DNA from: Folioceros fuciformis
Taxonomy: Eukaryota
Assembly: GCA_049999805.1 (NCBI GenBank)
Contig: JBNGIO010006382.1
Span: 388,182-431,819, forward strand
Direction: 5' to 3'
DNA: 43,638 bases
A program made the translations under genes and the position numbers. Positions 7,020 to 43,638 of this stretch are shown piece after piece (position 1 is the first letter of the stretch; each line of letters opens with the position of its first letter). A model generated the notes under the pieces. It did no database searches. It was not told the origin of the DNA and saw only the letters and a program-made list of their open reading frames with translations.

Positions 7020-8339
7020 TCACGGAGTTACATCCAGGCGGGGCACGAAACTGCCCATAGAAGCACTGGTGCCGAGCAAGCGGTGCAAAACCTCCTCCGT
7101 CTTGCGGATGTGGTCAGGCAAGCTACTCCAGCCGTCGGGCTTGGAGCGATCGTACATGACAACGCCGTTGAAGGGGCTGGAAGAGCTGGTGATGTAGAGC
7201 ATATGTCCCCCTCCCGAGCAGTTGAGGTACCCACAGTATTCTTGGGCGAAGCAGTCGCTCACCTTCATGTCGGCCTTGCCCACCCAGATCCTCCGCTCCC
7301 GGTCATATCCCACGACGAAGATGCGTTCCGTGATGGGCATGGGCTCGTCGGGAGCCTTGGGCAGATCCGTCCTGCCCACAAGCTCGATCACCGACGGCTG
7401 CCCACGGGATGTCCCCGGCATCACCACCACCTGGAGAGTGAACCAGTTGAGCTGCAGCAGCGAGAGGCAGGGCAGCACCGCGGACGAAGGCACGGCGATG
7501 GCGAAGCTGTCCTGCTCCACATGATACGCCAGCACCACCACCCGCTTGTTGGCGAACCCGCCGGGACTGCAGTCCAGGCCCAGGCAGTAGATGACTCCCG
7601 CGGAGGCGGTGCTGGAGCTGGGGAGCAGCATCAGGTCGTCGTCCGCCATGGTTGCCCCCTTCCGCCACTCCCGGGTGCCCGAGTGGTATACCTCGGCCGC
7701 CCAGTGGAAGCAGGATGCGCCCTGACAGATGCGCACCAGCTTGTACGACTGCGTGGCCTCGTCCACCAGCAGCTGGTGCAGGATCTTGTCGTCGTGGCCG
7801 CCACCGTGCGGGAGCGCGCCTGCGCTTAGCGCCACCCTCTGCCACTTGTTGGTCACTGGGTTGCCCACCCAGTAGCAGGGCGCGGCCCCGGCCAGCCCCC
7901 GCATCACCACCAGCCCCGACGCCCCTGCTTCCGACCTCAGGACGGTGACATCCGTCTCAGGCCGCAGCTCCGGGAACGACATCGTGTACCACCGCCTGGC
8001 CTGTGGGTCGAATGCCCAGCACTCCACCACCCTGTGCTGCATCGCCTCCTCGTCCTTGTGCATCGCTACCGGACAGCACACCAGGCACCATGGCCACCGC
8101 CGCGCCGTCGCCTGCACCTCCTCGCCCTGCCCCGGGAAGCCCTTCCCTGTCAGCAGCCTGTTCCATTTCTTGCACACGCTTCGAGCTCGGACCAAGCTTG
8201 GCACCGGCAGACAGCACAGAACTTTGCACACCAGATCATCATCTGCCAGGAATCCCTCCTCTTCTTCCTCCTCCCTCTCCTGCTCTTGCTGCTCGACATC
8301 ACCACCACCGTCTCCAGCTGCTGCTGCTAGTGGTGCCAT
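7020..8339 (-). CDS. F-box protein with C-terminal beta-propeller/kelch-like region, single exon
   Basis: Uninterrupted GC-rich ORF. F-box motif LADDDLVCKVLCCLPVPSLVRARSVCKKWNRLL, followed by AFDPQARRWY, WVGNPVTNKW and AEVYHSGTREW, typical of plant F-box-associated domains. Start placed at ATG 8339 (MAPLAAA). Confidence 0.85.
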   Translation of the reverse strand: MAPLAAAAGDGGGDVEQQEQEREEEEEEGFLADDDLVCKVLCCLPVPSLVRARSVCKKWNRLLTGKGFPGQGEEVQATARRWPWCLVCCPVAMHKDEEAMQHRVVECWAFDPQARRWYTMSFPELRPETDVTVLRSEAGASGLVVMRGLAGAAPCYWVGNPVTNKWQRVALSAGALPHGGGHDDKILHQLLVDEATQSYKLVRICQGASCFHWAAEVYHSGTREWRKGATMADDDLMLLPSSSTASAGVIYCLGLDCSPGGFANKRVVVLAYHVEQDSFAIAVPSSAVLPCLSLLQLNWFTLQVVVMPGTSRGQPSVIELVGRTDLPKAPDEPMPITERIFVVGYDRERRIWVGKADMKVSDCFAQEYCGYLNCSGGGHMLYITSSSSPFNGVVMYDRSKPDGWSSLPDHIRKTEEVLHRLLGTSASMGSFVPRLDVTP

Positions 8340-8596
8340 CCTGTGACACAAGGCACGGGATGATGGAAGGACGGACAGCATGAACTGGCACGACGGCACT
8401 CCAACACAGGTCACGCCTCCGTACATCTCTGCCTGGAGATGGCCAGGGTAACGAAACCTCAACGGAAAACCGTTTCACCGGTTGGGGACATCCAATAAAC
8501 CCAATGCCTAAGTTCGTTAGCGAGGATTGGACAAATATGTTAGTCTCCCACAGGCCACCTAGTAATAATTAGCACTGTCTGTTATCTACCTGCTTG

Positions 8597-11500
8597 TCAC
8601 TGGGACAGGAGCGTCCGCAGTGCTCTGTTCTGCCGCTCTTCACTCACCTCCATCAGCAAAGAGAGAAGGGCCTCACACATTTCAGCCGAATCTGCCTCCT
8701 TGTCATCTTTTTTAGCTGGAGAATACACCATCCATGCATGATCCAGTTTCCTCTCTGGTTTCACAACCATAGAACCCGGGATTTCAGCATCTTTCCTGGC
8801 TACTAGCCCGTCACTCTTCTCTCCGTACCGAAGTTCCAAGTGGAGAGCGCACACTGCCATGGCAGCTGCTAAAGGGATCACGACTGGGAGAGTCTTCGTG
8901 GCAACCGCTTCATCCGTTGCCTGGGTGTTGCTGGACCCTGGCAACCATGGAAGCTCCGCGTGTGCTATCTGTGACATGGTCGATAGCACGCCGGGAGCCT
9001 TGCTGGCCTCACTGTGGAAGGAGATAGTTGGGAATTCTGGAGGAAGAGTGTATTTTTCAAGGAATTGCCGCCTTTTCTGATAAGTTAGGTCTTCCAGAGC
9101 TCGCATATCACCCTGAAAGTCACCATCCAGGTCAGCACCTATAACAATTAATCAATTGAGACAAAGGAGCTGATGTGTGCATATCCGGTTATTGTACCTT
9201 GATGATTTTGCAGATCACCATCTCCATGATCCTTCTTGTTTCGATATCTGCAATTTGCCCTTCTCGGAGGATGTCGGATGCAATTGGGCTGCCCCCGTAT
9301 GGTGATTGCACAGCTACCAGCCCAACCACTTTGTCCCTCAGCTGATCCCAGTATATTGACAAAGCTGCAGCTGCATCCACTCCCCCTTTGCTGTGGCCAA
9401 GGAGAACAACACGCTTGCCTGTGCCCCAGAACAACTCGTCAATGTAGTCCTTGAGCTGCTGGGCGTTCGTCTCCACTGCAGCCTGTGACAAACCGCTATG
9501 CCCTTCAGTTACTCTGACTCTGAAATCCTGTCAGAGTCACTGACTTCATTCACCCGGTGCCATCAACTAACAAAAATGGAGCTGATACCTCACTGTGAAT
9601 CTTGGCTATGTAGCAAGAAAGCCCCATCTTGGAGAAATACTTTTTGGTGTCTACAAAATATAGTGGCCCATGATTGCTGAACAGACCTGTTATGAATCAG
9701 CAACAAATGAAGTATGTTCAGAACAAGCAGAAGTATTCCAGATCCGTCGTCTCGTCGTGTATCCACATACCAGGAACTAGAAGATAGACGAGATTATTGG
9801 GTAGCACATGCACCCCATGCCTGCAGAGGCAAACACTCACGTCAGAGAACATCGTCTCACGAGCCTTGAGTTTGTCAGTTTGAAATTACGAAACATACTG
9901 ACCGAATTCGTTCGAGATGCTCATGAAAACGCTCAGTTCCATCTTCCACAGGGGGCAAGCCAGGCATCTTCTGAAGCCAACCTATGTCATCTCCTGACCC
10001 GCGCAAAGTTGTTTGCACCCTCGCCACAACCCTATCCACATTGAAATCGTGCAAATGGACTTTGAGAAATGGGGACATGCTTTACGATAGCATGCCCTTT
10101 TGCTCTTGTCCAGTCAGACACTTTGCAGATCAAAATGAACAACTGCAAATCATCGTATCAATTGACAAATGGACAGGCCGAGCAATTGTCCACAACTGAC
10201 AGACACACACAAGGGACTCCAGGCCATGGCTCACTCTAGACAGCTGAGGATTCTCTCTGTCGGAAAGCTCACCGCTTCCATCTGGCACGTGTGCGCTCTA
10301 TGCGCCTCAGGACAAAATTAAGAAATGAAAAGGCCAACCGCCAAGCAAATCCAAGGCCTGTGAATTCAAAGATATACCTGCGTCACAAGAACTGTGAGAG
10401 GCAGAACACCTAAGGGGGTCCCAAACAAACTAACGTGAAAGGGCATGCCAACCCTGTGAGTAAGATGCATGCTACCAACATGTGGAGAGAAAGCTCCACA
10501 CCTTCTGGCTATGTCCATGCTAACAAAGATCTGATACGCGCACGTACTGGGTATTGTTTAGAGTAATCTCTATCACAGGAAGTACCCATGCAAACTCCAG
10601 GAGCTCTCCTCACAGGCTATCTGCTTCAAAATATACTACACGTCTTAGCAAACAGCAGGCAGAACAATTGACCCAGACCTTCAAGGAGGTAGCTGCACCA
10701 TCCATGGACCACACCAAGCATGACCAGGTCTGCATGAGTAGCGTGTGTCCACCAAACCCTCTTACATCACCATAGAAGCATCTGACAACACGTGATCACA
10801 AGAAGGCAAGTAAGTGAGGCCAGGCATTACTAAGAACTTTGATGCACAGGAGTGCTCACCCTTGCCAAAATGAAGGTGAAGAGATCAGCCAATTTTGACC
10901 GATTCCCATAACAGCTGAGCTAGTCTGTGCGAAGATTGAACTTGGTCGCTCCACCCGAACATTGCTAAGACCCGTGCTGGTCTCCGTACCCATGCCAGTG
11001 CTACTGGTGTCGGGGGATGTCTCCGGTACTGCTCCACCTGCTTCAGCATCGAGGCTACCCGATGCAGCTGCAGTAGATGGTTCTCCAGAGGACTGAGATG
11101 TCAAGTCCCGAGTAACAGCTTCCTCTGAAAGGAAGCTCACAATAATAAGTGTCCATAATATCACTTTCTAGTTAACCCCAAACAGCAAGCATACAATCAG
11201 TGAACACACGCAGAGTCGCTTTGGCCCAGGATAGACAACCTCTACTAACAAAGGTAGCAAGCCGGCGCCCAATATCAGAGGCAGTTTGAGCAATTCGCAC
11301 AGATGCCTCATTTATGGCAGGGACTGCTGCAGCCAGTGGAGGAATGCACCATTGATCTTCAAAACCCCCATGCTGCAGGATTGAATTTACCTGGTGGACG
11401 GCCAGAGGCATAAAGACTGATGAAAACCCTAGGATGCCTCACATGCACCAGCACAATTGCATCCAATGGTAAGACTGCAGGCAAAGAAAATGGGTGTGCA

Positions 11501-24260: not shown

Positions 24261-26030
24261 TCACAAGGGGCAGCTTTTCAGAATTGTCGCTTCTATGGTG
24301 ATGCCAGGGCCGAAGGCCATGATGGCGCCCCAGTCGCTGCCCAGGCCTGTCGTCGATTTCCCTTGCTCCTTCGACAACTTGAGCATCCGATCCATAACGA
24401 AGAATATTGACGATGACGCCAGGTTGCCGTAATTCGCCAACATCCAGCGAGTGCACTCCAACTTGCTGGCGGACAGCTGCAGACCCCGCTCCACCCCGTC
24501 GATGATCGCGGGACCCCCCGGATGCATGATCCAGAACATGTCGTTCCAGGTCAGATCGCTGCCCTGCGGATCCGGACGCGGCTGTGTGTGCATCTGCCTC
24601 GCGTACTGCGGCCCCCAGTTGGCGCCACTCGCCATCGCAAGTTGGAGAATAGCGAACTCCTCCGCCAACTTGTGGTAGCTCCGGGAGCTGACGTCCGCAA
24701 AATGTCGATGTCTGGCTGCGTTCATCACGTGGTTCATCCCCGCCGCAGTGACGACCCCGGTCATAAAGTCCTTCACGTTCCGCTCCACCAGATTCGGTAG
24801 ATCCTTGTCCAAGCGGTACACGAAGCCGGCCTCTGTGGTGTTGCCGGTCACGGCGTAAGCGCTGCCCGGGATCAACCGCTGCCCCGCCCAGTGCAGATCG
24901 TAGAGCGGCCGCTCCATCCCGGGCCTGGGATCCGTCCCTAGAACCAGGGCAGCAGCGCCGTCTCCGAACAATGCAGACTGCACCAGCGCGTCCTTCTTCG
25001 CTTGACTGGGAGGTTGGAAATGCGCCAGGGTCACCTCACTCGTCACCACCAGAACCCGCGACCCGGGATTGTTCTCCGCGAAATTCTTGCCGACGCGCAG
25101 CGCGGTTCCGCCTGCAGAGCAAGCCTGATCGACGCCAAGCACCAGCGTTAACAACGGGGAAGTTCGCACACTCACGATCAAGCTCGGAAGGGAAAAAATT
25201 TCACAATGAGCTTGCGTCTGCCTGTGTTGCAACCTCGGTCGATCTCAACCATGGTGCACGACGCTCCACTAACTCGCTTACCAGCTGGTACAGCATCACA
25301 CGCTGCGTATCCGGGGCCAGGTCCAGGATTTGGACCAGAGATGCATCCGCGCCGGGGCAGGACACGCCTCCCGTGGCTGCCATCACGACGTGCGTGATCT
25401 CCGACTTGGGCCGCCCCCAGTCCTCGATCGCCTTCATGGCAGCCTTGGCCGCCAGCAACGGGACCTCTCGCTTCATGATCTCCTCTCTGCCGTTGAGCGA
25501 CGGCCCGCCGACCGGCAGCCGCCGCAGCACCTCCTTGGACACGGTCAGGTACCGGCGTGTCACACCCGCGCCCTGGCCTGCACACACACACACACACACA
25601 CACAATCGTCATCATTCCAGTTTTACTCCCCGTGGGCCACCCCGACAGATCATCACGTATCACTCCTCCCAGTCGTGAACCACCGGGTGTCCCCGACTCG
25701 TGACATGACCACGACCAGTCGCCATCACTTCACCACGACGCACTCCGGCAAGGCAAGCAGGTCACACTTACAGATCTGAGTGAACTTTTTCTTGAGGTCC
25801 TCCGTCTCCTTCATCGGCTCCTTCTCGCCCACGCTGTTGCTGCCGCCGCCGAGGAGGAAATCGGGGTAGTCTGCTTGCTCGACGCACTGCGGGGGCACGG
25901 CGGTGCCAAGAGCCAGAATCGCAGCCGAACGCGTCGGCTCCGCACCGGAGTGCATGTGCGCGAGACGCCTCCAGCCGCGGAGGGCGTGGGAGCTCTTCCG
26001 AGCATAATCGGCGATGCGCAGACTCGTCAT
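24261..26030 (-). CDS. Type III polyketide synthase (chalcone synthase superfamily), divergent copy PKS-A, 3 exons, 472 aa
   Basis: Exons 26030-25772, 25577-25282 and 25124-24261. Cys-His-Asn triad present (YQL/ACSAGG, WIMHPGGPAI, YGNLASS), with ALFGDGAAA and AFGPGITIE. Confidence 0.94.
25581..25603. repeat. (CA)n microsatellite in PKS-A intron 1, abutting the splice acceptor
   Basis: An uninterrupted cacaca run lies directly next to ctg (the minus-strand CAG acceptor at 25578-25580). Confidence 0.9.
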
Positions 26031-27713
26031 GGCGTGGAGCTGGTGTGAGGAGCGCGCGCGGAATTGCTATCTAGCTGTGTGGAGCAAGCACACAGGAATA
26101 CTAGCGCTGGCGACGGTGACGGTGACGGTGACGGTGATGCAGAGCGCAAGGCAGGACCGATCTGGTCACTGGAGTGAACCCCGGGGATGCATGCAAGTGC
26201 AGGGCGAGACAGACAACGGCCGAAGCACCTGCCGCATTTATATTACGGCACCCGGGCTGGAGGCTTTGCCGACGTCTGCACAGCGCATTGAATGTGGCGA
26301 CTCCACTTTTGCAACAGGGGGGGGAGGGGCTGGCCCGCGACCATGTGTCTGTCCTCGCGAGGAGGAATCCCGGGTCACAAGACACGAATCGTCGGGGCTG
26401 GAGGACGCCATGCCGGAATTCGTAGAGCGTACGACGACAGGGGAGTGGCGAGTCAGAGCGTCTGCCGCAACCCCTCTCACCTTCCACATCAGTCCCCGGT
26501 CAGCCACGCAGCGGCACCTTGGCCTGACGTCAAGCTCACCAGGCGATAGTTTGGCCCTTGTCCATCGATCCTATGCCCGTCCGTTCGCCAGCCACCACCG
26601 ATAGATATCTTCTTTTCTCCTATTGGTTCGCGGCTTCCAGCGTCTGCCATTGGTCTTAGAATTACAGCTCGTGTCCTGATGCGTGTCTGGAGCGCCGGGG
26701 GCCCGGCGCCCACACCCTGGTTCCTCTTGCTCTCCGGAGCGCCTGCTCATTCCCCATCCACCACGGTACCATCGCCGTGCCTCCCCCACTCAAAACCCGT
26801 ACCGCGTGCGATACCCCCATGGCCCTAGTTTCGCGCCACTCACTTCACGGACCAATGCCTGTGCTCCAAGGTTGTCTCTAGGGAGGATGTGTTTGAGTTC
26901 GGAGAACTTGCAACTCTTCAAAATTCCAAAGTCAATCATTCTCCCAACACTAGCATGCAATAGGATGTTTCTTCGCATTATTTATCGTTCCACTCCTCAT
27001 TCATCCATTTTTATGATGAGGTAAGGGTACGGCAGCAGCTGTTTCATGCACAAGAATGTAGAGGTCATGTCTAAGAATATGGAGGTCATACAGAATAATC
27101 TAATAAGATAGATCCTATTCAGATACATATCGAATCAATCTATATGATACATGACTGACAACATGTCCATATGTCTCGTATCTCATAACCGGAATGTGTT
27201 TTCTTTGTGTTGAAAAATAATGGAAAATCCCATCTACTTCAAAGATTGGAAACACAACCCGAGCAAGGCTAAAAACCATCATAATATATATAATATATAA
27301 ACGTAAAAAAAAGATCAAAAAATTCAATTTAGATTGTGGATAACAAATGACAATCATATGTGTATTCCTAGAGAAAATATCTTGAATATCTATCAAAGAT
27401 CATGAACTACCTTTCATGATCTTTGGTAAGCCATGTGATGTATCGATCCATGGCATATTAAGAGCTATAGATATATGTATGGGTTGATATTTATGGAACT
27501 AGCCCCCTCTTTCAACCAGGCTATGATCTCTCTCCCCCTCCTATGCCTTAAGCTTAAGGTAGCTGGGATCTCCCATGTCTTTTTAAATGAAATATACAAA
27601 AATTCTTGGTTTCGTCCGTACCAGAAGGATAATTCAAGGGAGCTATGTAATATATATATATATATTAAAAATAATAGTGATAATTTTATTAAATTTCAAC
27701 ACTTACTAGTAAG

Positions 27714-28159
27714 TAAGTATTGGTATTTTCTATTATTGAAAAAGATATGAAAGTCCCATCAACTTGAAAGATTGGAGGAACAACCGAATAGGCCAAAGGC
27801 ATACTAGCCCTTTTGAACATTGTTTTCAAAAACTATTTACTACTCCCAAAATGTCATAATGTAGAATGTAGAATAACAAAAGGCGTAGCTACTCTACCTA
27901 GAGGAGTGCCAAAAAAGCTGCTTGACTTGCGCTTGTACTTAAATATTGCGCTTGTATTTAAGTATTGGTATTTTCTATTATTGAAAAAGAGATGAAAGTC
28001 CCATCAACTTGAAAGATTGGAGGAACAACAGAATAGGCCAAAGGCATACTAGCCCCTTCTAACATCATTCTCAAAAACTATTTACTACTCCCAAAATGTC
28101 ACGATGTGGAATAACAAAAGGCCTACCTAAACCCGTGCCGAAGAAGCTGCTTGACTTGC
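27714..28159. repeat. Imperfect tandem duplication, about 245-bp period, 2 copies
   Basis: taagtattggtattttctattattgaaaaaga...gaaagtcccatcaacttgaaagattggaggaacaa starts at 27714 and again at 27959. Both copies end near aagctgcttgacttgc. Confidence 0.9.
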
Positions 28160-28187
28160 TTATGTTGCTATTCTCAAAAACCGCGTT

Positions 28188-28309
28188 AGCCAATACTCTT
28201 TGCAAAGTAATGGATATGAAGGTCATCATAGAGGAAAGAGGGAAAATAAGCCAATACTCTTTGCAAAGTAATGGATATGAAGGCCATCATAGAGGAAAGA
28301 GGGAAAATA
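28188..28309. repeat. 61-bp tandem repeat, 2 copies
   Basis: agccaatactctttgcaaagtaatggatatgaagg(t/c)catcatagaggaaagagggaaaata at 28188 and 28249. Confidence 0.92.
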
Positions 28310-28455
28310 CCATTCCTATGACTCTGATAAGCCTTGGCACGGGAGAACACCATTCCTATAACTCTAATAAGCCTTGGCACGAGAGAACACCATTCCTATG
28401 ACTCTGATAAGCCTTGGCACGGGAGAATTCCTATAACTCTGATAAGCCATGGCAC
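28310..28455. repeat. 40-bp minisatellite, about 3.7 copies
   Basis: Unit ccattcctat(g/a)actct(g/a)ataagccttggcacg(g/a)gagaaca at 28310, 28350 and 28390, plus a partial copy at about 28428. Confidence 0.92.
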
Positions 28456-28619
28456 ACTCCTTGATGAACCTTGAAAAGTCTTCGTCCATGGCCCCATGAG
28501 TCTCAAGAACAAGGGGATGAAAATATATCTATCTCATCTTGTAGGGCAAAATACTTATGGACTTTGGCACTTGCACAACCCTCCGTTCCCTAACCAAGGG
28601 TTGATAATGACGTGCTTGC

Positions 28620-29430
28620 AAATCGAATTTCTAGTGAAATTTGTGACAACCACATCAGTGACACAAACCTATTTCCCTATATTGAAAAAAAGGTCGGTTC
28701 TAAGTGCAACTCTGTTGCACAAAGTATATGGACGCTCCCTATACGAAAGAAACCCACACTCCCTAGTTATTGAGAACATTACATCTTGAACTGCATCCTA
28801 GGTGGCACTGTAGTGCCCCCTAATGAGATAGGGTGCTAGACAGGACCTTGTATCGACAATGGCAACCCCACAACTACATGTAAAGAGAGAAAAGGCCAAG
28901 AAGTGGGCCAAACCTAAGCGAAATCTCATCACGGCGGCGAAAGTTGCAAGTGCAATTCGAAACACCTGGATGCAAAGTCGAGCTAAAAGCCAAAAGCAAA
29001 GAGTCCACTTCTTTACCTGAATAAGAGTGAATACGAGCCCAAGAAGACCTAGAGATAAATGAGTCTGAAAAAAGGGCTCTTAGTGGGTTTTCCAAGAGAG
29101 AGGCTCCTCAACCCTTCCCTAGAAAAGAAGGTGAAAGAAGGTAGAGTCTCCTGAGCCTCCAAAGGTAAAGAGTCCCTAGCTCGCCTAAGAGATACCTTAA
29201 AGGAAAAATGCCCTCCTCAACGCTTGAGATAAAATCTTCAAGAAGAGGAGAATCTTGCAACAAAAAGGGCAAGTTAGTACTGAGAAAGACAGCTAGGGCA
29301 GAGACCTCCATAATCAAAAGACCAAAGGTAACCGACAAGGAAGCCTACTTCCAAGCCAAATCACTGACAACACCCTTGAAGCTGCGTGGACCTATAATGT
29401 CCACAAGAGTGTGCATAACTTGATTGCAGA
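28620..29430 (-). mobile_element. Degenerate non-LTR retrotransposon fragment (CRE/R2-like; C-terminal zinc knuckle plus restriction-like endonuclease region)
   Basis: Minus-strand translation across stops and frameshifts gives DLAWK*ASLSVTFG...WARIHSYSGKEVDSLLLA...SLRFG...TCSCG...HYSAT*DAVQDV...RE...RTDL...TDVVVTNFTR. This is the motif order of RLE-bearing non-LTR elements. Recognised by eye only. Confidence 0.6.
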
Positions 29431-29584
29431 CTTAATAAGAAAACTAGAAGGCGCAACAGTTCTAATAAGATAACCTGGTCATAGGTCACCTACCAAATAA
29501 AGAATACCAAACATAATCTGACATTCATTAATATGTGAGAGGCTCATGATATGAGTCAACATTTGAAAAATAGTAAGGTCCCAC

Positions 29585-29760
29585 AAAATACCAAGACTCG
29601 AAGTCACTGTAACGATATCCCCAAAACACCGATATCCCCAAAACACCAAGACTAGAAGTCACTGTAATGATATCCCCAAAACACCAAGACTCGAAGTCAC
29701 TGCGGGGTAACGATATCCCCAAACACCAAGACTCGAAGTCCCTGTGGACTAATGATATCA
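29585..29760. repeat. About 38-42-bp minisatellite, about 4.5 copies
   Basis: Recurrent accaagactcgaagtcactgtaa(c/t)gatatccccaaaac with small indels. Confidence 0.9.
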
Positions 29761-33145: not shown

Positions 33146-34675
33146 TTAGGTGGTGATGGCGCAGCTCTTGAGCAGCGAGGCCTCCAGAGTGAGGCCAGGC
33201 CCGAAGGCGATGAGGAAGCCCCATTTCAATCCCTCGCCGGTGGTGTTGGCTCCCAGCTTCTTGCTCCTGTGCCGGATGTGGTCCAGGGCAAACAAGACGG
33301 AGCAGCTGGACATGTTGCCGTAATCAGCCAGGACCTGCCTGGTGGTGGCCAGTTTCTCCTTGGACAGCTGCAGCTTCTTCTCGAACCGGTCCAAAATGGC
33401 GGGGCCTCCGGGATGCACCACCCAGAACATGTCGTCCCAGGAGATGGCGTCAGGGGTACCGAGCCCGGCGGCGGCGGACGCCAAGACATTGGCGTTGTTC
33501 TGGTGGTTAAGCCCGGCCTTGGTGACCGCCCCGCTCAGCGCCTTCTCGATGTTCTTGGCGATGAGCGTGGGGACGTCGCGCATGAGATGGAAGACGAGGC
33601 CGGCCTCCGTCAAGCGGCCCTCGATGGCGCCCTCGCTGTCGGGGAGCAGCATCTCCCCGCTCCAGTGCAGCTCGAAGATGGGGCGCTCGACTCCCAGCAC
33701 CGGGTCGGCCCCGACGATGAGGGCGGCCGCCCCATCTCCGAACAGTGCCGATCCCACCAGCCCGTCCAAGTGCTCCTCGCTGGGCGCGCGAAACGTGACG
33801 ACGGTGAGCTCGCTGGTGACGGCCAGAACGCGCGCGCCGGCGTTGTTCTCCGCCAGGTCCTTGGCCACCCTGGTGACGGTGGCTCCCGCGAAGCAGCCCT
33901 GCCAGCAAGTAGCACACATCGGTGTTACAGTGCCATCATCGTCTCACCGCCTCCTTCCTCCCTTCCCTCACACTTGTCGTTCTCATCATGGCGCTAGCTA
34001 GCGGGTGTCAGGCAACAAATACCTGCTGGTACATCATTATCCGGCGCGTGCTGGGGTTGAGGCCCAGGAGCTTCACCAGAGACACCTCCGCGCCGGGCAT
34101 GCACACTCCGCTTGTGGTTCCAAACACGACGTGCGTGATGTCCGACTTGGGCCGCCCCCACTCCTTGATCGCCTTCGCCGACGCTTGCGCGGCGAGCTTG
34201 GGGATCTCCCGGATGGCGATCTCCTGTCGCGAATTCAGCGACGGCTCCATGTACGTTGCCATGCCGGGGTTGGCCTGCAGGACCTCCTTGTCCAGGTACA
34301 TGTAGCGTCTCTGGATGGCAGTCTTCTGGCCTGCGCAGCGCAATGCAATGCAACCACACACGTTTCGATTCTGATCCATTCACTTCACTCACGCCTGCCT
34401 GCATGACTGCGTGGGAGGAGTTGGAAGCCATGATGGAACAGACTGCGGGTCGGAGCAGCGCACTCACATATGCGGCGGAACTTCTCTTTCAGCTCCACCT
34501 TGTGATCGCAGTTGGTGACGGCAAAGAAGAAATCGGGGTACTCGCTTTGCTCGTACACGTTGGGGGGCAGTGCTGTCCCGATTCCAAGGATGGTGGCAGG
34601 GCCTTCGGCCCGAGATGCCTTCCTCCTCTCTACATCGCTCACCTCCCGGAAGGGAACAGCTGCTTGCACCACCAT
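33146..34675 (-). CDS. Type III polyketide synthase, chalcone synthase-like copy PKS-B, 3 exons, 422 aa
   Basis: Exons 34675-34468, 34330-34023 and 33898-33146. Motifs [65 protein letters not shown] and AFGPGLTLE. Confidence 0.96.
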
Positions 34676-35486
34676 GATTGTTAAAATCAGACAAGCACCT
34701 GTAACCACAACGCCTTGCTACCTAGGTAGCTCCTTCTTGAAGCTGGCCAAGAGCCGGCATGCAAGCTGCGAGCGACCACGTTGAGAGTGCGCTTGTCCAC
34801 ACAATGCAGCTGTCCATTTATTCAAGAAAGTGAGAGGGCCTGGCCTGGCGCCAGATTGCACCTCTCAAGGTAGAAAAAGGGTGAGGCGAGTTGGACAGGC
34901 AGCAGAATTCCAGCAACTCGGCATACTGTTTCAATCAAGCTGTTGCAGCCAGTTGTTCAAGCAAGCCTTCACGGGACGTACCAAGGACGTACAGGAGCGA
35001 AAATGCCACGCATCCTTCACAAGTTGCCTTCACAAATTGCCTTCACTTGTACAAAGACGAAAACGACAGACAGCTTACTTGAAATCAGCTTCACACCGGA
35101 CATGTATACAACCCACGACTTTGGGCTCTGCTTGCTGCTGCCTCAAAAAAGTGAGACATGTCACCTTGCGTAGTGCGTTGGACCTCTCCCTCCTCTGCAA
35201 ACACCCATCGCTCGTGTTCGTACTTGGTGATACACTGCTTTCAAAGTACGCCTCGGTGTCTTGTGGCCAAGCTTTGGAAGGTCTTCGACTCTTCCCCTGA
35301 GACCTTCCTTCGCTGTCGACATTGACGGAAATTTCCGTCTTTCATCGTATGAACTAAGCGGGGGCTGCGACTCGCTCTGTGGCTGGCGGGCTCTGTAGGG
35401 TCTAGCGTCCTTGGCGAACCACAGCCACAACTCACTCAACTCACGCAGTATAGGTAGCTCAGTACGCAAGGGAGAACTAATGCAGG

Positions 35487-37666
35487 TTAATCATCTTTCG
35501 GGTTCGTATGTGGGTATCTCTGATGGATCACAGTACTGACCACTACAAGGGGCAATGCAACAGTGACGTATGGTGACGGTGCGATGCCATCGATTAGGTA
35601 CTGCAGGAGTGCGGTGACGAGCAGCGCAGAAACGATGACAAACCCCTGCACCCCACAGCAACAAAGTCAGGAAAGAACTATGCTGCTGACTGCAGTAGCT
35701 CATTACGCGAACAGGGTAAAGCACAAACCTTCTTCACGCCACCGGAATGGGTTGTCACTAGACCGACCAGAATGCCACCAATGGCATTAGTGAAAATTGG
35801 TATCTGTACACAAAAGGGGTTCAACTGAGCACCAACCAAAAAATGGATGTCTACGAGAGCAATGTCTCAAAGGGTTGAGTTTTCTTACTACAGTGTACCG
35901 CGTCCACCCGGAGAAGAACCCACGCTTAAAAATAGCTCGGCCATCGGGAGACCTGAGCGCGCTAAGTCCAAGCCCAATGCTGCCAAACATGGACATCTCT
36001 ATCGTCATAAGATAAGTATCTTTCCTCTTCACCTGCAGGCAGCACGCAAGTAAGAAAGAATTACCCTTCGAAATCGAAGAAATCAAGCATCAAATGTACT
36101 AGCCCATGTGCATGAGTAGCTATCTTGTACTGACATCTTACTTGAGCTGCCCACTGGCACAGCGTTGAAGCCAGTCCTGATAGGACAGATGCAGCCAGAA
36201 GGGGAATAATACCAAGGAATATAACTTGCTCCGGATTTGCTTCTGGAGAAGCATGGGGAGTACTCTGACCAATGCTCAGAATAGCAGCAGCACACAAGAG
36301 CAGGAGCAACGCAAAAACCTGTTGAGCTGACTGCCTGAACCTGGACCCAGAAACCAGAAACCGTAAGAGCAAACCAGGGGACCAAGAGAGACAGTGCCAA
36401 CTGTATTTGAGATCAAGAATGCGCCGCATATCCCGTAGAAAGCATGGTCTGAAAACAACTCAAATTTTACTGCAAATTGTACCTTTGAAATCGAATCCAA
36501 CGTGACCAACTTACCCAAGAAACAAAAACATGAATAAGGCCGTAAAAACCAGCTTGGTTTGATTCAGCAATGAAAACGTGAGCGCATCGAGGTGAGAATA
36601 TGACAGCTGTAATAGTGTGTTTTGAACTGCGTACAGCAGTGCTGGGAGAGCTGCAGATTGCAAAGCATCACGTAAACTCCAGTGCTTGAAAATTACTCTC
36701 AAGCTACCTCCCCACGTCAGCAGCAGCATTGCACATAAAACCTGCCAACCAGCACCGCCTCTTAGCATGACTCAAGGATGAACGATGTGCCGATACGGTA
36801 GACAGAGATCAACCAAGGTTAGGTCCACACATCAAACAGGCTAGTCAGTTACATCGGGAAGGTTTTACACCACACTGACTTCAAATTGAAAAGCTCTTAC
36901 CTTCACAATTTCACACGAAAGGACGGTTGAGGTCATTATCACTCCTTTCCTGATTATCAACAAAACCAGTTTCTTCAAAGAAAGCGAAAAGAAGCATCCC
37001 TGAACCCCAGGAAACACAGCTGAGCAACCGAATCACACTCAACATTGCCAACTCAGCTATAGAATATAAGGTTATCTACATCCATGAGAGTACCCCCAGA
37101 CTGCGGGTCCGGAAGCAGCTAGGAAGGGGAACTGTAAAGTTAACAAGAAGCTACTGGCAACATTCCCATGGCTGAGAAAGGTAGAATGACAGAGGATGCC
37201 AGAGAAGGGTGGTTCCCTCTGCAGAGTGGTGCAAAGGAGCTCCAGCATATCAAAGGTTTGAATCACTGTTGATCTCAGAACTGCTGAGATGCTTTGAATT
37301 TCCTTTCTTCCCCTGCTTCCGTTAGTATCAAGTGACTAGGAGATGGGATGGCACGTTCAATGCACCTCATCGGAATGGGATCAACGCAGAAATACGCGCC
37401 GTTTCTTGTCATCAAATCAGCTCAAGCATAAATCTCCACCAAGCCAGACAGCATTCCACGCTTTACAGCACAAAGAAAGCCTACCCTGTACAACGCTTGG
37501 ATAGGAGTGGCTGAGCGCCATATTGCAGTGCGAGGGCGATCATGTACAGACGAGCGCGACTTCTCCGCCTCGTTTCCTGTCGGACGCTTTCTCCCTCTTC
37601 CTCCTGCTCGGACTCTGCTTCCGATCGCGGCGGCCGTGTCGCCGATTGGCGCCTCGCCGTCGCCAT
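35487..37666 (-). CDS. ROCK1: Nucleotide-sugar transporter (SLC35A; ROCK1/CMP-sialic acid transporter 5-like), multi-exon
   Basis: LQYGAQPLLSKRC, LPALLYAVQNTLLQLSY, LNQTKLVFTA, AASVLSGLASTLCQWA, YLMTIEMS, NAIGGILVGLVTTHSGGVKK/GFVIVSALLVTALLQ. Stop at 35487-35489. Confidence 0.92.
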
Positions 37667-37943
37667 GGCATGGCCAGATCACAGGGCAGGAGGCCCTAGT
37701 TCAGCGGAACCGGAACACCTGAACCGGAACTACAAGGTTCGCAACCTGGGCGACCGTTTGTGATGAGAACAAAGGGAAAAAATTCAGAGAACATGAGAGT
37801 AGGCTGCCCCTTCTTTCATTTTAAACCTAAGGTGACTTAAACCTCATTTCCTTACGACCCTACGAGTGTGTGCTTTGCTGAGTGAAGAGCGGCAGAGTCT
37901 GGTTTGCTTGTGGAGCAAGTCGGCAGGACAGGGCAGCTCCCGG

Positions 37944-39335
37944 ATGGCTCAATTGGTGCGCAGAGCGGGTCGGCCGCTGCAGCGGGGAGCCAAGAGCTTA
38001 TTGCAGTCGCTTGGCGGCCATGGCCGGAGTCCGGTTGCTCCCATCGCTGCTGTGGAAGAGGTCCACGGCTGGCTCGCGCCGAGCATGGTCCGGTTCATGA
38101 GTAATCCGGCGGAAGCTGTAACTGGCCCGGACCTTGCCCTGTGCCGCGCTCTTCGTTCTGAGATAAAGCACGAGAAGAGCGAATACAAGCAGCCTCCGGT
38201 TGGTCTACTGCCAACGTTGCATGCTTTGTTCTTTGCAATCGGTTTAAGGAGAGTCTGTGAAGAATCGGTTGTGTTCCAGGGCTTGAAATCCTCACTTCTG
38301 CGAGAGAACTGTTCGCTGAACTGATCGGAAGGATCAGGGTTTTTTTAGGGTTTATTTGTTTCTCATGTTCAGGGTTAAACGGAAGTGTCTGTCCGGTTGG
38401 CATTTGATTATTTGGAGCTAGTGTTATGTCCTTTCCTCTGTACTTGGTGTGCTCATGATATCTTTTGATTACTTGGAGCCATCCTTGCATCCTTTTCTCT
38501 GTACTTGGTGTGATGATGATATCTTTGGATTGCTTGGAGCCAGCCTTGCATCCTTTTCTCTGTACTTGGTATGATCATGATATCTTTTGATTGCTTGGAG
38601 CGAGTTTTGCATCCTTTTCTCTGTACTTGGTGTGATCATGATTCCGATTTTGTTTGTTGCAGTTTTTTTCTTTTTGGTGATGACTTCGGTAGGTTTATGG
38701 AGGGGTATATTGACATGTTGTGCGCTTGCTGTTTCAGTTGGTGGGTAGGGGTCCGCCCAAGCCTTGGGAGCTGACTGATACTCCAGGCAAGCAAGAGATC
38801 ATTCTCAGAAGGTCATTTGGTTCAGAGGACATAGCCGTGACTGCCCTCTACCAGCCCAACGAGGGGGGACCGGACCAAAATGACGATGATGAGGATGAGG
38901 ATGACGAGGACGCCAGTGTGGACCAAAACGTTGCCCATCTCACTGTGACTGTCAGTAAAGGAGGAGATCAGCCGACACTGGAGTTCAGCTGTTCCGTGTT
39001 CGACAAGACATACACTATTGATCACGTCGCGCTGTTGGAACACAAGGATGCAAAGGATTCATCAGCATATGATGGACCGGAATATGAGTAAGCTCGTTTC
39101 CCCTTCTCCTTTGACTATTGAACTCTCTTCTGTTGCGCGGAAACTTGCTGAGCGTTGTGCGTTTTGTGAATGCAGCACTCTGGATGATGATCTGAGAAAC
39201 AGGTTTGAAGACTTCCTTGCCACTAGAGGTGTAGACCAAAAGTTGACGAACTACCTCATGCAGCTTCTTCCCGACAAAGAGCAACGCGAGTATACTCGCT
39301 GGTTGCACAATGTGGAAAACTTTGTGCAGAAGTGA
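37944..39335 (+). CDS. Mitochondrial glycoprotein family protein (MAM33/p32), 3 exons, 254 aa
   Basis: Exons 37944-38198, 38738-39087 and 39176-39335. Arg-rich presequence, ALRSEIKHE, acidic loop, YDGPEY, LDDDL...FL..RGV and DKEQREYTRWLHNVENFV. Confidence 0.92.
38429..38642. repeat. 61-bp minisatellite, about 3.5 copies, in intron 1 of the MAM33 gene
   Basis: Unit tccttttctctgtacttggtgtgatcatgatatcttttgattgcttggagcca.ccttgca recurs every 61 nt. Confidence 0.92.
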
Positions 39336-39719
39336 GGCAGTTCTTTGTGGACGTGCCTTGACGTCTGTTTTCTGTGAAGGGAATTTGGGTGTAACTTGCC
39401 AGTCTTAGTAGTAACGGAGAGGCCCAGTTCCTGTGCTCTGGCGGGAATAGCATTAGGGTGTGTTTCGCACCAACAATTTTCTACCCATTGCAGTTTTCTT
39501 CTAGTACGTAAGCTTCTTCCTCTATTGTAAGCGTCTTCTTCTACCATGTCATGTGTTCTTAAAAACTACAATGAAATTGAACCTTCCTAAGATTGCAAGA
39601 AAATTGAACTTCCAAACTCAATTGTGGAGGGGCAGGAAAATTGTGAGATGTCGCCAAGTTCGCAGACAGTATGAAGCTGTCACGCAGGTCGGAGCCTCTG
39701 TCGGGCCTGGCTAGCCAAG

Positions 39720-41371
39720 TTACATGACTAGGTAGTCACGCACAGCGTATCCTATCGGATCAGATGGGTCTGCGCCAGGTCTGTAGAACAGCACGGATGC
39801 ACATCAGCACATACACTGACCTGTCCCCACATAAACCTTAGCGTCTGACCAGAGGCTCCTGCATACTGTTCACCTTTTGTCAATGACGCCGTGATGAACA
39901 TGGAAGCTGCCAGAGGCGATGTCGTCCTTGTACTGTCAAACAGCAACAGCCGTGTGTAGACAGACGTGAAATCATAAAGCAATCACAACAGTACTTCTGC
40001 GAGTGACACTTACGAGTTTCAAGACAACATGTATTGAGGAAAAAGCCAAGTCTTCGAATGGAATGTCGTCCAAACTAAACAGGGCACATTCAAGCGACTC
40101 CGGCCCGGGCGAGAAGTCAGGTTGCTTCAGTTTTGCTCGAAAAATTATGCAGCTCTGCACTGAACATAACACTTTGTCAACCAATCAGGATGCAAAACAG
40201 AAAACACTACGAAATGTGAAGCGCAATTTTGCAGAGAAGGAAATCTAGGCCCTACACACCTGACCCAGAAGCGGAATGTCCAAGTGAGCAAAAAGAGAGA
40301 GAACTTCCACTTGTGCCTGCGCCTCCTCCCATGTTTCTCTGGCTGCTCCCTCCGCTGCCGACTCACCAAGCTCCATGAATCCGGATGGGAAAGTCCTGTC
40401 AGAAACCAGAAAGATCGAAAACATAGTGTCACGGATTTAGTTCGAAGCACAACACAGGACACGATGCAAGGATTCAGCCCATGCCTGACTAAATAGCCAG
40501 GTTCTCCATCCAGCAGGACGTGGACTACGATTACCATAGGCCATACGATGGTTTGATGGCTCTTCTGCACAACAAAACTTTATCCTCGTGTTCCACCAAA
40601 CATCCGACAACCTGCCAATGATCCGGAAACTCACCTCAACCTGCATCAGTGTGAATTCAACGAGGACATCCACAACCACCCAGAGTTCAAAAGGCTCCAA
40701 TCGGGTGCTGCTGTTACCATTTTGGGGTTTTGATAGTGGACAGCGCCACAAATTGTGCAAACGTCACGGAGTTCATGCTCTCCCTCCGGAATTTGCTGCT
40801 TGATTGGTCCCCCGCAAGTAGGGCAGAAGCTCAATTTCGGAACCACACACTGCGCCAGCATACAACAAGATGCAACACTCAACATTCCTTCCCAGACCAG
40901 AAATTCGAAACTCCGCGAATTCCAGTCATCCACGCAAATCACACAGCACTTTATAGCAAACAAGCCTGCATACACCTTCACTTTGGCTGCTATGGGAGAG
41001 AAGACCGCAGAGGTGGACGCCGGAGGCACATCTCCCCCCGCCCGGGTCGCCATATCCCTTCGCCTGCACTTCGCCCCAGCACTGTGATTCACTCTCACCC
41101 TGCAATCCAACGGCTGCACCAATTCCCCGTGTTTCAGCAGCCGGCCATCACACTGCCCCGAGACAGACGGCTTACCCTCGGCCACAGGGATGCTTCTCTT
41201 CCCTACACCCTGAGGCAAGCACTGCTTCCTGTGGTTCAAGGGTCTGCTGCCGGGCAAACAGGGCACCAGCACCGTCGGAATGGCCTTAAGGCAGGGGGCT
41301 GCAGGAGACCTATGCGGAAGCACGCCAGGCTGAGAAGACAGAATGGCCCGCACAATGCTGCCCCCCATCAT
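39720..41371 (-). CDS. NUDX23: Nudix hydrolase 23-like (zinc-ribbon Nudix, FAD pyrophosphatase type) with transit peptide, multi-exon
   Basis: FCPTCGGP...[20 protein letters not shown], Nudix box [36 protein letters not shown] and LAFSS. Terminal exon [20 protein letters not shown], stop at 39720-39722. Confidence 0.92.
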
Positions 41372-41897
41372 TCAGCCACACTCACCAGCGTCTCCAGTCC
41401 GCCATCGCACCAAGCTCGAACTGGAAAGCTACTGTGACAGATAAGGTTCCTCTAAGACTGTGCTAAGGTTCAAGTCAACAAATTAGCCCTAAAGCAGCGG
41501 GGTTCTCATTTATAGGCAAAGCGATTATGAAAGAAAAGGAGGACAACTACGATCACATTTGCCCAAATTACCAGCCAATCCAAGAACTTCGTGATCATGG
41601 ATTCCAAAAAAAGGCCTACCCACTACCAATGCCTAACAAGTGCTTCCCTGCACTCACTCATGTCTTATACATCATGGATATAAATATCCTCTACCTAAAG
41701 ATTGCAATTATATGAGAAAGGGGAAGACTAGTCTAAATCTTGTGGTAGTGATAGGCTCAACCACTACCCTGACAAAAACATGATGAAACTCTTGCTTATG
41801 GGCTCATGCCTACAAACTTGTTTAGACTAGACTTAAGGGAAGGCTATGACTCGGCTCTGGACGTCTTGTACAAAGACGTGTCTCTCTAATCAGCAAA

Positions 41898-42318
41898 TGT
41901 TGGAGACACTCCCAGGTCGAGATCCCCGCTCTGCCGGGGTGAGTAGCGTGTGTGAGAAGCTCCTAAGGGAAGTCGTGAGCATTTCTTCTCGGCCAATGGT
42001 GAGGGGGATGAATCTACGAGAACCACGGCAATGAGGGATTTCTCCTTTCCTATTCCCCGAGTCACCTGTCGTTCTTGGAATTTGAGTGTGTGTGTGCAGG
42101 CCTGCCTTCCGGTTGAGTTACGGTTTATGGATTTACACGCAAGGACGAAGACATTACGGCATCAAACTGTGTGTGTGCTATATTACAAAGGTGTTAAAAA
42201 AAAAGGGTCCTAGTCTTATGAACAGTCGTAACTAATAACTGCCAAGCTAGGGTTAACGTTTCATATCTAATTAAGTATATATCAATGACCTAATTAATAA
42301 TCATTTAATTACTCAACA
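41898..42318 (-). repeat. 3' LTR of the copia element (421 bp)
   Basis: On the minus strand it begins TGTTGAG immediately after the PPT. The + strand TGTTG at 41898 provides the terminal inverted repeat. The partner LTR is outside the window, so the left edge is unconfirmed. Confidence 0.75.
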
Positions 42319-43112
42319 CCCCCTCTCATTGTATATACGACTAAATACCCAAAAAGAAATAGCTAAATTATAAAGCCGGGGTAACTTCATTCCGCGGTCT
42401 TCGTATCATCAGTCTTATGCCTGCTCGTAAGCTGAGCTCCAGCTGCTGATCTCGCTCGTGTCCTGCTTGCCGAAGCTGCGACATGGCTGGTTCCAAGCGC
42501 GCGCTAACCGACCTGTCGTCGGGTGTAAACGCTGAGCCTGTTAAGAAGAACCTTAGCGAGCTGCAGAAGGAAACAAGCGCCATTCTGACCAGGCTCTAGG
42601 AGACAGCAAGCAACATCAGAGCTGCATCAACTTCGACTGTTTCCAGGGAATCTCCTGGTACTACTACCTTGCGGCGTCAGCTGTGCAAGTGTCTTTCAGA
42701 TGCTTCAACGTGCCCTGTTCACCCTAGGGAGACTCCACACAAGATGTCTGACAGAGGGGCTGCCAAGTACTGGCAGAAGTGCTTGATGGAGGCGAACGAG
42801 CCCTAAACCCCTGAAGTATACATCTGCCCTATGTCCAAGGGGACCAAGTTTCGGCCGAACTGGCGGAGATGGGGAGGAGAAGACAACAATTTAGTGGCTT
42901 GATACTGTAAGTTTGCAACATGTCTGACATACGCTCACTGTTGTTGTGACTCGACCTTGTTGCTAACACATGTGTTATTTGGTGATCAATATCCAGGGAG
43001 AGTATGGCTGAGGAGTGTGGGATGATGTGGTTGAATTTGAAGACACACCTAGGTAGAGCAGAAAGTTAGGTTGAACTTTGTCACCACCTACCAGCTTCTC
43101 TACACGAAACTC

Positions 43113-43638
43113 TTACTCTCTGCTGGACATATTTGCTGTGTGAAGCGACCCCATCACTCCTAAAGCCTCCTTGAACTGGTGATGCTTGAGCCTGGGTAAG
43201 GCCTTGGTAAGAAGATCCGCTGCATTTAAATTTGTGGGTATATATTCCAGCTTTACTTCTCCAGTCTCAACAGCATGCCTGATAAAGTGGTGATGCACCT
43301 CTATGTGTTTCGTACAGGCATGGAAGACTGGGTTCTGTGCTAAGGCCAACGCTGACTGGTGGTCACAGAAAATGACTGTAGGTTGCTTTTGTGGTTGTCC
43401 CACATCGGCTAACAGTCTTCTCAGCCACATAGCTTCCTTTGAAGCTTGTGTTAACGCTGAATATTCTGCTTCTGTCGACGAGAGGGAAACTGTTGTTTGT
43501 TTCTTAAATGACCATGTAACAGCACCGCCTGCCAAAAGGAAAGAATAGGCGGAGATAGATCTCCTGGTGTCTGGGTTTGCAGCCCAGTCTGCGTCACAAT
43601 AGCCTAGCAAGGTAAGTTCCTCTGTTTCGCCTACGCGC
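43113..43638 (-). CDS. Ty1/copia pol, C-terminal RNase H domain (partial)
   Basis: GYCDADWA...RRSISAY...VTWSFKKQTTVSLSSTEAEY...CDHQSAL...PVFHACTKHIEVHHHFIR...NAADLLTKAL. Confidence 0.95.
   Translation of the reverse strand, partial: RVGETEELTLLGYCDADWAANPDTRRSISAYSFLLAGGAVTWSFKKQTTVSLSSTEAEYSALTQASKEAMWLRRLLADVGQPQKQPTVIFCDHQSALALAQNPVFHACTKHIEVHHHFIRHAVETGEVKLEYIPTNLNAADLLTKALPRLKHHQFKEALGVMGSLHTANMSSRE

Follow-up and report, generated by a model that had tools for sequence, protein, structure and literature searches.

The window examined here, a stretch of 43,638 nucleotides (nt) of the Folioceros fuciformis genome (contig JBNGIO010006382.1), carries two genes for type III polyketide synthases (PKSs), PKS-A and PKS-B, which lie 8 kb apart on the same strand (Table 1). 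PKS-B keeps every pocket and coenzyme A (CoA) residue of chalcone synthase (CHS) and is CHS-like as judged from its sequence alone; its identity to the CHS enzymes of liverworts, mosses, lycophytes and seed plants is 59-63% alike. This likeness to plant CHS, an F-box/At3g26010-type gene and further genes of plant type mark the host as a streptophyte; no close proteome is present in the databases searched, where even the conserved PKS-B reaches 63% identity at best. PKS-A, the main subject of this report, is not a surprise in kind: it belongs to the type III PKSs of plants, from which it has strongly diverged. Its coordinates in a first-pass annotation, made from the letters of the sequence, agreed exactly with the gene model that we recomputed.

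Table 1. Features of the window. Positions are counted from its first nucleotide; CDS, coding sequence; aa, amino acids.
Feature	Position	Strand	Details
PKS-A gene	26030-24261	minus	three exons; CDS 1419 nt, 472 aa; stop codon 24263-24261
PKS-A exon 1	25772..26030	minus	M1 to first base of C87 codon; ~25-aa N-terminal extension, 8-aa insert, K82 (=K55), Q85 (=R58Q)
PKS-A intron 1	25578..25771	minus	194 nt, GTAAGT..CAG, phase 1; splits Cys codon after its first base
PKS-A exon 2	25282..25577	minus	G89 (=K62G), G156 (=S133G), C160 (=M137C)
PKS-A intron 2	25125..25281	minus	157 nt, GTAAGC..CAG, phase 0
PKS-A exon 3	24261..25124	minus	includes stop codon and AFGPG loop
PKS-A catalytic codon C187 (exon 3)	25121-25119	minus
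PKS-A changed codon H220	25022-25020	minus	=T197H
PKS-A changed codon Q234	24980-24978	minus	=G211Q
PKS-A changed codon Y288	24818-24816	minus	=F265Y
PKS-A 60-aa insert	24558..24737	minus	M315-S374; at CHS loop 288-294
PKS-A catalytic codon H386 (exon 3)	24524-24522	minus
PKS-A catalytic codon N419 (exon 3)	24425-24423	minus
PKS-A changed codon A421	24419-24417	minus	=S338A
PKS-B	33146..34675	minus	canonical CHS-like, 422 aa; exons 34675-34468, 34330-34023, 33898-33146
DFR/CCR-like NAD(P)-reductase gene	~22483-24066	plus	multi-exon, convergent with PKS-A
MaoC dehydratase	1523-2288	minus	Pfam
TPR + calcineurin-like phosphoesterase (Metallophos)	3924-5791	plus	Pfam
F-box protein with At3g26010-like propeller	7023-8474	minus	Pfam
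LCAT-like	9192-9530	minus	Pfam
tRNA	14876-14947	plus	sole Rfam match
Dihydrouridine synthase	18353-18811	minus	Pfam
Papain-family protease	20664-21713	plus	Pfam; single exon
MAM33	38714-39332	plus	Pfam
Nudix zinc ribbon	40649-41371	minus	Pfam

Translated on its own, the exon 1 piece of PKS-A matches the Pfam domain Chal_sti_synt_N at E = 6.4e-05, which is under the gathering score, and exon 3 matches both Chal_sti_synt_C (PF02797; 159.1 bits, E = 1.1e-46) and Chal_sti_synt_N (PF00195; 87.2 bits, E = 1.4e-24), the cut-off being 27 in each case. The Cys codon split by intron 1 corresponds to Cys60 of a 389-aa CHS reference, and an intron in this conserved codon is typical of plant CHS genes; intron 2 ends immediately 5' of Ala-Cys-Ser, the positions 163-165 that include the catalytic Cys. 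Two simple repeats accompany the gene: a (CA)n microsatellite is found at 25580-25605, at the 3' end of intron 1, and 4.3 copies of GACGGT lie at 26112-26137, about 80 nt upstream of the start codon.

Both proteins contain the sequence AFGPG, which satisfies the (G/A)FGPG signature loop used as a criterion for type III PKSs (PMC11316218). The best match of PKS-A among PDB sequences is the Marchantia polymorpha stilbenecarboxylate synthase (STCS) 2 (2p0u, E = 5e-72), followed by many chalcone synthases. An AlphaFold2 (AF2) model of the exon 3 product only (287 aa, built on 145 aligned sequences) reached a mean predicted local distance difference test (pLDDT) score of 83.8, with 181 of the 287 residues at 90 or above, and a Foldseek search with this model found EnPKS2, HsPKS1 and CHSs at E values of about 1e-25 and query-side TM-scores (TMq) of 0.72-0.76; from the ESM Atlas only generic type III PKS and KAS III clusters were returned. 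Judged by its Pfam domains, catalytic triad, AFGPG loop and modelled fold, PKS-A is a type III polyketide synthase of the CHS/STS superfamily, and the thiolase-type fold of the solved type III PKSs is predicted to be present in exon 3.

PKS-A thus resembles the solved CHS-type enzymes of land plants (2p0u; 3awj, Huperzia serrata PKS1; 6dx8, Selaginella moellendorffii CHS; 1bi5) in both Pfam domains, the triad, Phe215, Gly256, a GFGPG-type loop and the intron in the conserved Cys codon, with matches ranging from E = 5e-72 to 3e-63. It differs from them in its low identity (39-42%, the range also seen for its closest database proteins, which are land-plant CHS-type enzymes), in the residues H197, Q211, Y265, A338, G133, C137, Q58 and G62, in an insert of 60 aa where they have a loop of about 6 residues, and in its N-terminal extension.

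Residue numbers here follow alfalfa (Medicago) CHS2, the catalytic Cys of PKS-A aligning to residue 164 of 1bi5_A. We aligned the spliced products of PKS-A and PKS-B with eight land-plant relatives using MAFFT, taking the 389-aa Trifolium CHS (P0112, with C164/F215/H303/N336) as the reference. The first-pass annotation had listed five residues as kept and ten as substituted in PKS-A, and all of these were reproduced: Cys164 (C187 in PKS-A), His303 (H386), Asn336 (N419), Phe215 (F238) and Gly256 (G279) are retained, and the substitutions are T197H, G211Q, F265Y, S338A, S133G, M137C, G163A, F165S, R58Q and K62G. At all 15 named positions PKS-B has the CHS state, as had likewise been claimed. Positions 58 and 62 are anchored by the flanking KF..C and RRY, the stretch from one to the other being free of gaps. 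Five further changes in PKS-A had not been listed before, namely V196A, I254V, L263F, M337L and Q162L.

To see how unusual these residues are we turned to a larger alignment, which comprises the 241 of 373 proteins whose length lies between 330 and 520 aa. Its plant-type set comprises 185 sequences and is dominated by true CHS, so that non-CHS enzymes are under-sampled in it. None of the 185 has H197, Q211 or Q58; A338, C137 and S165 occur once each, G133 and A163 twice each, and Y265 and G62 four times each, while Arg58 is retained in 172 and Lys62 in 149 of them. His197 is present in 34 of the 241 aligned sequences, mostly bacterial-type ones. Gln211, and the whole combination of residues found in PKS-A, appear in no other sequence of the 241.

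Lists of pocket positions were fixed from the literature before counting. PMC3602603 assigns S133, E192, T194, T197 and S338 to the coumaroyl pocket and T132, M137, F215, I254, G256, F265 and P375 to the cyclisation pocket, and G211 was added from PMC6274091. PKS-A is changed at seven of the resulting 13 positions and PKS-B at none; Thr132, Glu192, Thr194, Phe215, Gly256 and Pro375 are the ones that PKS-A keeps. PMC6274091 also names seven pocket residues as conserved in CHS (Thr132, Ser133, Thr194, Thr197, Gly256, Phe265 and Ser338), four of which are changed in PKS-A (S133G, T197H, F265Y, S338A) and all of which are kept in PKS-B. By its pocket residues, PKS-A does not appear to be a bona fide chalcone synthase.

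It is accordingly very unlikely, in our view, that PKS-A still functions as a chalcone (or stilbenecarboxylate-type) synthase acting on p-coumaroyl-CoA. The six retained pocket residues would suit such an enzyme, and the nearest solved relatives are indeed CHS and STCS enzymes. F165S, which had been counted among the differences from CHS, does not discriminate here, as the solved Selaginella chalcone synthase 6dx8 likewise reads Cys-Ser. These points are set against the four changed residues of the CHS-conserved seven (as listed in PMC6274091), against the absence of H197 and Q211 from all 185 plant-type sequences, and against the presence next door of a canonical, separately transcribed CHS-like gene, PKS-B.

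Changes at some of the same positions are known from enzymes with other products. According to PMC8551677 and PMC6274091, position 197 governs chain length and, together with 256 and 338, the choice of starter in 2-pyrone synthase (2-PS), aloesone synthase (ALS) and pentaketide chromone synthase (PCS), and the Gly211Thr change of bibenzyl synthase is described as distorting the pocket for the coumaroyl group directly under the gatekeeper Phe (PMC6274091). PKS-A would follow the principle seen in these enzymes, where larger side chains at 197 and 211 remodel or obstruct the coumaroyl pocket and shift both starter choice and chain length; it is unlike them in keeping Gly256, and in having His197 rather than Leu, Ala or Met, Gln211 rather than Thr, and Ala338 rather than Ile or Thr. 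The earlier proposal of a probably shorter-chain product finds no specific support, because Gly256 is kept and four of the changes (S133G, M137C, I254V, S338A) shrink the side chain, against only two (H197 and Q211) that enlarge it.

A second likeness is to the type III domain of Steely1 from Dictyostelium (2h84) and to bacterial-type PKSs, in which His occupies the site equivalent to Thr197 of CHS; 'CSLHF' is read in both the query representative and 2h84. In that set, His197 goes together with Ala211, Trp256 and Met or Leu265, whereas PKS-A combines it with Gln211, Gly256 and Tyr265 and falls in the plant clade. By analogy, His197 would be compatible with an aliphatic starter.

The relation of PKS-A to PKS-B is seen in the gene structures, the two genes having introns at the identical two positions and in identical phases. 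Their identity is 46% by BLASTP and 49-50% over aligned columns, as compared to 39-42% between PKS-A and any database protein. We built a FastTree phylogeny of 84 rows and an IQ-TREE maximum-likelihood (ML) tree of 36 chosen rows under LG+C20+F+G4, the latter comprising the 2 proteins of the window, 26 named plant-type sequences, 1 unnamed Logan sequence, 1 like the anther-specific CHS-like enzymes (ASCL), 1 like the 2'-oxoalkylresorcinol synthases (ORS), 1 without a taxon name and 4 bacterial-type outgroups; the ASCL-like (Spirodela) and ORS-like (Spirogloea) rows are recognised by signature residues only, authentic PpORS and PpASCL being outside the tree. The ML tree places PKS-A inside the plant clade with a support of 100/99 and joins PKS-A and PKS-B as sisters, both at the unresolved base of that clade; the FastTree phylogeny, too, leaves the base of the plant clade unresolved and has PKS-A there, next to the ASCL-like sequence. 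Since the tree is weak at this point, the main support for a tandem duplication comes from the location of the genes, their common intron sites and insert site, and their best mutual similarity.

Compared to PKS-B, PKS-A evolved about 3.6-5.5 times faster, and did so globally rather than locally. With five outgroups, 88-93 changes are unique to PKS-A and 23-28 to PKS-B (chi2 34.9-39.0), and the terminal branches of the ML tree measure 1.33 and 0.24 substitutions per site, respectively. Retention of the family consensus in PKS-A falls with the variability of the column, from 64 of the 69 columns that are at least 98% conserved (93%) to 58/99 at 90-98% and to 39/121, 13/60 and 7/35 in the further, more variable classes; PKS-B retains it in 68/69 and 89/99 columns of the two most conserved classes. 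The five changes of PKS-A in the columns of at least 98% comprise four conservative ones (G163A, A174G, D176N and L310I) and R350L. The GC content at third codon positions (GC3) is 0.805 in PKS-A and 0.865 in PKS-B, and the two introns of PKS-A have a GC content of 0.57 and 0.53. Over 416 aligned codons, the Nei-Gojobori method (NG86) gave pN 0.346 and pS 0.583 (dN 0.46, dS 1.13) between PKS-A and PKS-B.

Because of this retention gradient, the open frame and the high GC3, we conclude that constraint on PKS-A has continued: the data fit purifying selection that is relaxed but still acting, and neutral decay does not fit them. The first-pass annotation had argued against simple decay from the open frame and the intact splice sites, an argument to which the spliced RNA contig described below, the retention gradient and the GC3 of 0.80 now add.

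A large structural difference of PKS-A is its 60-aa insert, which had been overlooked when the frame was described as fully open; the frame of 472 codons is indeed open, with the insert lying within it. It sits between the helix matching CHS 271-287 and the W-x-x-HPGG strand, and the Pfam, PDB and database matches of PKS-A all break in two there; against 2p0u, 66 residues of PKS-A (query 126-191) face 6 of the chain (306-311). In PKS-B this loop also carries an insert, of only about 31 aa, and both inserts start with G[L/M]NH..NA. No similarity was found between the 60-aa insert and the rest of the window. The N-terminal third of PKS-A also differs in length, as the 8-aa insert immediately precedes the helix of Lys55, Arg58 and Lys62 and 4 aa are missing behind that helix. 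In our reading, the 60-aa insert is probably a flexible, lineage-specific surface loop.

We also considered whether the insert could be an unrecognised in-frame intron, as it offers 29 in-frame GT..AG pairs, and rejected this. An RNA contig covering 23856-25123 spans the insert without a joint, and the GC3 of the insert (0.77) is close to that of the rest of the coding sequence (0.81), as against the intron GC content given above. One candidate, 24728-24564 (165 nt, donor CAC|GTGATG), would leave a CHS-like loop length on removal, but none of the donors, of which GTGATG is the best, is like the four real ones, and this best donor falls in a stretch homologous to the PKS-B insert, which is coding in the spliced PKS-B contig. 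The contigs are compatible with a rare or minor isoform spliced within the insert.

Evidence for transcription comes from contigs of sequencing run X2, whose RNA label is a guess, compared with those of the DNA runs X1 and X3 of the same organism. One X2 contig omits exactly the 157 bases of PKS-A intron 2 (CT..AC on the plus strand), and the two introns of PKS-B (124 and 137 nt) are likewise omitted exactly in X2. Neither the PKS-A intron 2 joint nor the PKS-B joints are present in X1 or X3. As exact intron-skipping joints occur in X2 and none in the DNA runs, cDNA must be present in X2, which shows transcription and splicing of PKS-A. The spliced form of intron 1 is seen in an X2 contig in which 18 nt of exon 2 are joined to exon 1 at 25771. 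In X2 the PKS-A contig, which also takes in the 3' end of the neighbouring convergent gene, has a depth of 47.6 and the fully spliced PKS-B contig one of 1890, values that are unsuited to ranking expression. The runs did not differ in any letter and so carry no information on polymorphism. An X2 contig of depth 6.55 reaches from the junction of exons 2 and 1 across the whole of exon 1 as far as 27074, over 1 kb upstream of the ATG; it could stem from a very long 5' UTR, from a second transcript or from carried-over DNA.

Type III PKSs are a textbook example of how a duplicated gene can gain a new chemistry through a few substitutions in the pocket, and divergent CHS-like paralogues are common in plants. 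Against this background we somewhat favour the reading that PKS-A is a lineage-specific tandem duplicate of PKS-B, faster-evolving and still selected as a working type III PKS, and probably neofunctionalised to a non-chalcone product. After duplication from a PKS-B-like parent, PKS-A would have evolved several-fold faster with selection kept. The enzyme would load an acyl starter on Cys187 and add malonyl units to it. Thr197His and Gly211Gln, which both put a large residue in place of a small one, may obstruct the starter (coumaroyl) pocket, and Ser133Gly, Met137Cys, Ile254Val and Ser338Ala may loosen the cyclisation side, with Gly256 staying open. With the one pocket crowded and the other side loosened, the starter would most likely be other than p-coumaroyl-CoA, aliphatic or small, and the product a non-chalcone one, for example of the pyrone or resorcinol type. 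Lys55, Arg58 and Lys62 we take to be the CoA-phosphate ligands of alfalfa CHS2, a literature search on Lys55 and Arg58 having given no confirmation of this; Arg58Gln and Lys62Gly would then remove two of the three, and together with the flexible 60-aa loop suggest an altered delivery of the substrate.

Several observations weigh against this reading. The clade of PKS-A and PKS-B is weakly supported (ultrafast bootstrap 37, Shimodaira-Hasegawa-like approximate likelihood ratio test 79), and in an approximately unbiased (AU) test the alternative that groups the ORS-like sequence of Spirogloea and PKS-A is not rejected (p = 0.114). An orthologue of PKS-A was found neither in a search among proteins of similar length (1820 matches, the best at 40% identity) nor by HMMER among 1.84 billion representatives (2878 matches, none above 52% over the matched parts); the 20 named representatives among the matches, and the 23 fused or mis-annotated proteins from a search among longer proteins, are likewise not close to it. 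The dN/dS of about 0.4 between the two genes, with dS near saturation, is an upper bound for the summed path and says little on the PKS-A branch alone, and so allows a much relaxed PKS-A branch. Within the insert, pLDDT drops below 50 at exon 3 residues 139-158 and 160-181. Another X2 contig retains intron 1 of PKS-A, which leads to a stop 14 codons into the intron, and the contigs give no ratio of the two forms. R58Q and K62G could simply weaken CoA binding. Finally, among columns at least 90% conserved, 6 of 12 pocket columns are changed as compared to 40 of the 156 outside the pocket, a difference that is not significant (p = 0.073 in a one-sided Fisher test, with an odds ratio of 2.9). There is thus a trend for pocket changes to be about twice as frequent as changes in other equally conserved columns, and of the first-pass claim of a rebuilt cavity one half holds, in that the pocket is not CHS-like, while a targeted change is not supported, as divergence is found everywhere in the protein.

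Many of these points would also be expected if PKS-A were a redundant duplicate under strongly relaxed selection and on its way to becoming a pseudogene, open and transcribed but with little or no useful activity. The faster evolution, the loss of two basic residues at the CoA site, the insert modelled as unstructured, the retained intron 1, the database searches and the pocket changes that do not significantly exceed background divergence all fit with such a course. A gene on this route would not be expected to keep 64 of 69 near-invariant columns with retention falling steadily as columns become more variable, nor an intact triad, Phe215 and AFGPG loop; moreover, its 472-codon frame is open, the splice sites of both introns are canonical, intron 2 is correctly spliced, and GC3 (0.80, and 0.77 in the insert) shows no drift towards the 0.53-0.57 of the introns. 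We therefore regard incipient pseudogenisation as unlikely, if the strongest competitor of the duplicate with a new product.

The neighbour of PKS-A bears on another alternative. Directly downstream and convergent lies a gene for a reductase resembling dihydroflavonol reductase (DFR) and cinnamoyl-CoA reductase (CCR); its exon at 23491-23700 is similar to the dihydroflavonol reductase 4qtz (E = 2e-06) and also to cinnamoyl-CoA reductases. In an X2 contig this exon (~23700) is joined to 23856 and the sequence continues into the 3' end of PKS-A, so that the transcripts of the two genes overlap. The reductase reads LWFALAK where 4qtz has LWYVVSK and 5tqm NWYCYGK, its Phe thus standing at what we take to be the catalytic Tyr of the YxxxK motif of short-chain dehydrogenases/reductases (SDRs). 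PKS-A could then be an enzyme of the ORS/ASCL kind acting on long-chain acyl starters (an alkylresorcinol or hydroxyalkylpyrone synthase) and paired with this DFR/CCR/TKPR-like reductase, much as ASCL is paired with the DFR-like reductase TKPR in sporopollenin synthesis. PKS-A does resemble the ASCL (PKSA/PKSB, PpASCL) and ORS (PpORS) clades of land plants and charophytes in being a divergent non-CHS plant type III PKS. The unrejected AU grouping, the place of PKS-A beside the ASCL-like sequence in the FastTree phylogeny, and a His197 of the kind usual in microbial enzymes that take aliphatic starters (Steely1, for instance) are all in line with this idea.

The signature residues of both families fail in PKS-A, though. 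The diagnostics given for ASCL are Gly225 and Ala/Val240 (PpASCL numbering), and for ORS Gln218, Val/Ala277 and Ala286 (PpORS numbering) (PMC11316218). PMC8551677 equates PpASCL Gly225 with CHS Thr197 and describes a PpORS A286F mutant; by inferred offset (21 for ORS), ASCL 240 corresponds to CHS 212 and ORS 218/277/286 to CHS 197/256/265, with which A286F fits, position 265 being Phe. At positions placed by this offset, ASCL membership needs Gly197 and Ala/Val212, where PKS-A has His197 and Ser212, and ORS membership needs Gln197, Val/Ala256 and Ala265, where PKS-A has His, Gly and Tyr. In addition, the intron positions and the insert that PKS-A has in common with PKS-B set it apart from ASCL and ORS and, with the tandem position, point to PKS-B as the parent, and the reductase has Phe where 4qtz and 5tqm have the catalytic Tyr. 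An ORS/ASCL identity for PKS-A seems to us very improbable.

A more far-reaching possibility is that PKS-A, the Tyr-to-Phe DFR/CCR-like reductase homologue and PKS-B form a small lineage-specific metabolic gene cluster, in which PKS-A would have been re-tooled (His197/Gln211, two CoA ligands lost, a 60-aa docking-type loop) for a non-CoA or otherwise unusual starter and would make a new non-flavonoid polyketide, in a plant lineage that has no sampled proteome and is possibly one of those reported to lack flavonoids. We consider this quite unlikely, and mention it for the context: hornwort PKS genes are described as uncharacterised, and hornworts as lacking flavonoids, in two reviews (PMC9670752, PMC7010833). 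With PKS-A taken as a diverged duplicate of PKS-B, as we prefer, the interest of the locus is that parent-type and derived copies adjoin. One holds all the CHS residues and the other a combination unprecedented among 241 aligned relatives together with a large loop insert, so that the pair may serve as a clean natural experiment on how specificity for the starter and for cyclisation is set.

Among the proteins collected for comparison, three from Spirogloea muscicola (P0018, P0019 and P0020; 947-1036 aa) are fusions of an AMP-binding domain (PF00501) with a type III PKS and are unrelated to PKS-A; Spirogloea proteins of this AMP-binding/PKS kind are marked as fusions in PMC11316218.

Between the two PKS genes lies a high-copy repeat at ~27600-29150, where the depth of the DNA runs rises from ~10-15 to 60-670 and many aberrant joints and loose ends occur. 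No Pfam domains were found in the open reading frames of this repeat. Tandem arrays are present at 28188-28455, with more at 29579-29759. The flanks of the window (1-22000 and 35000-43638) are gene-dense and carry plant-type genes.

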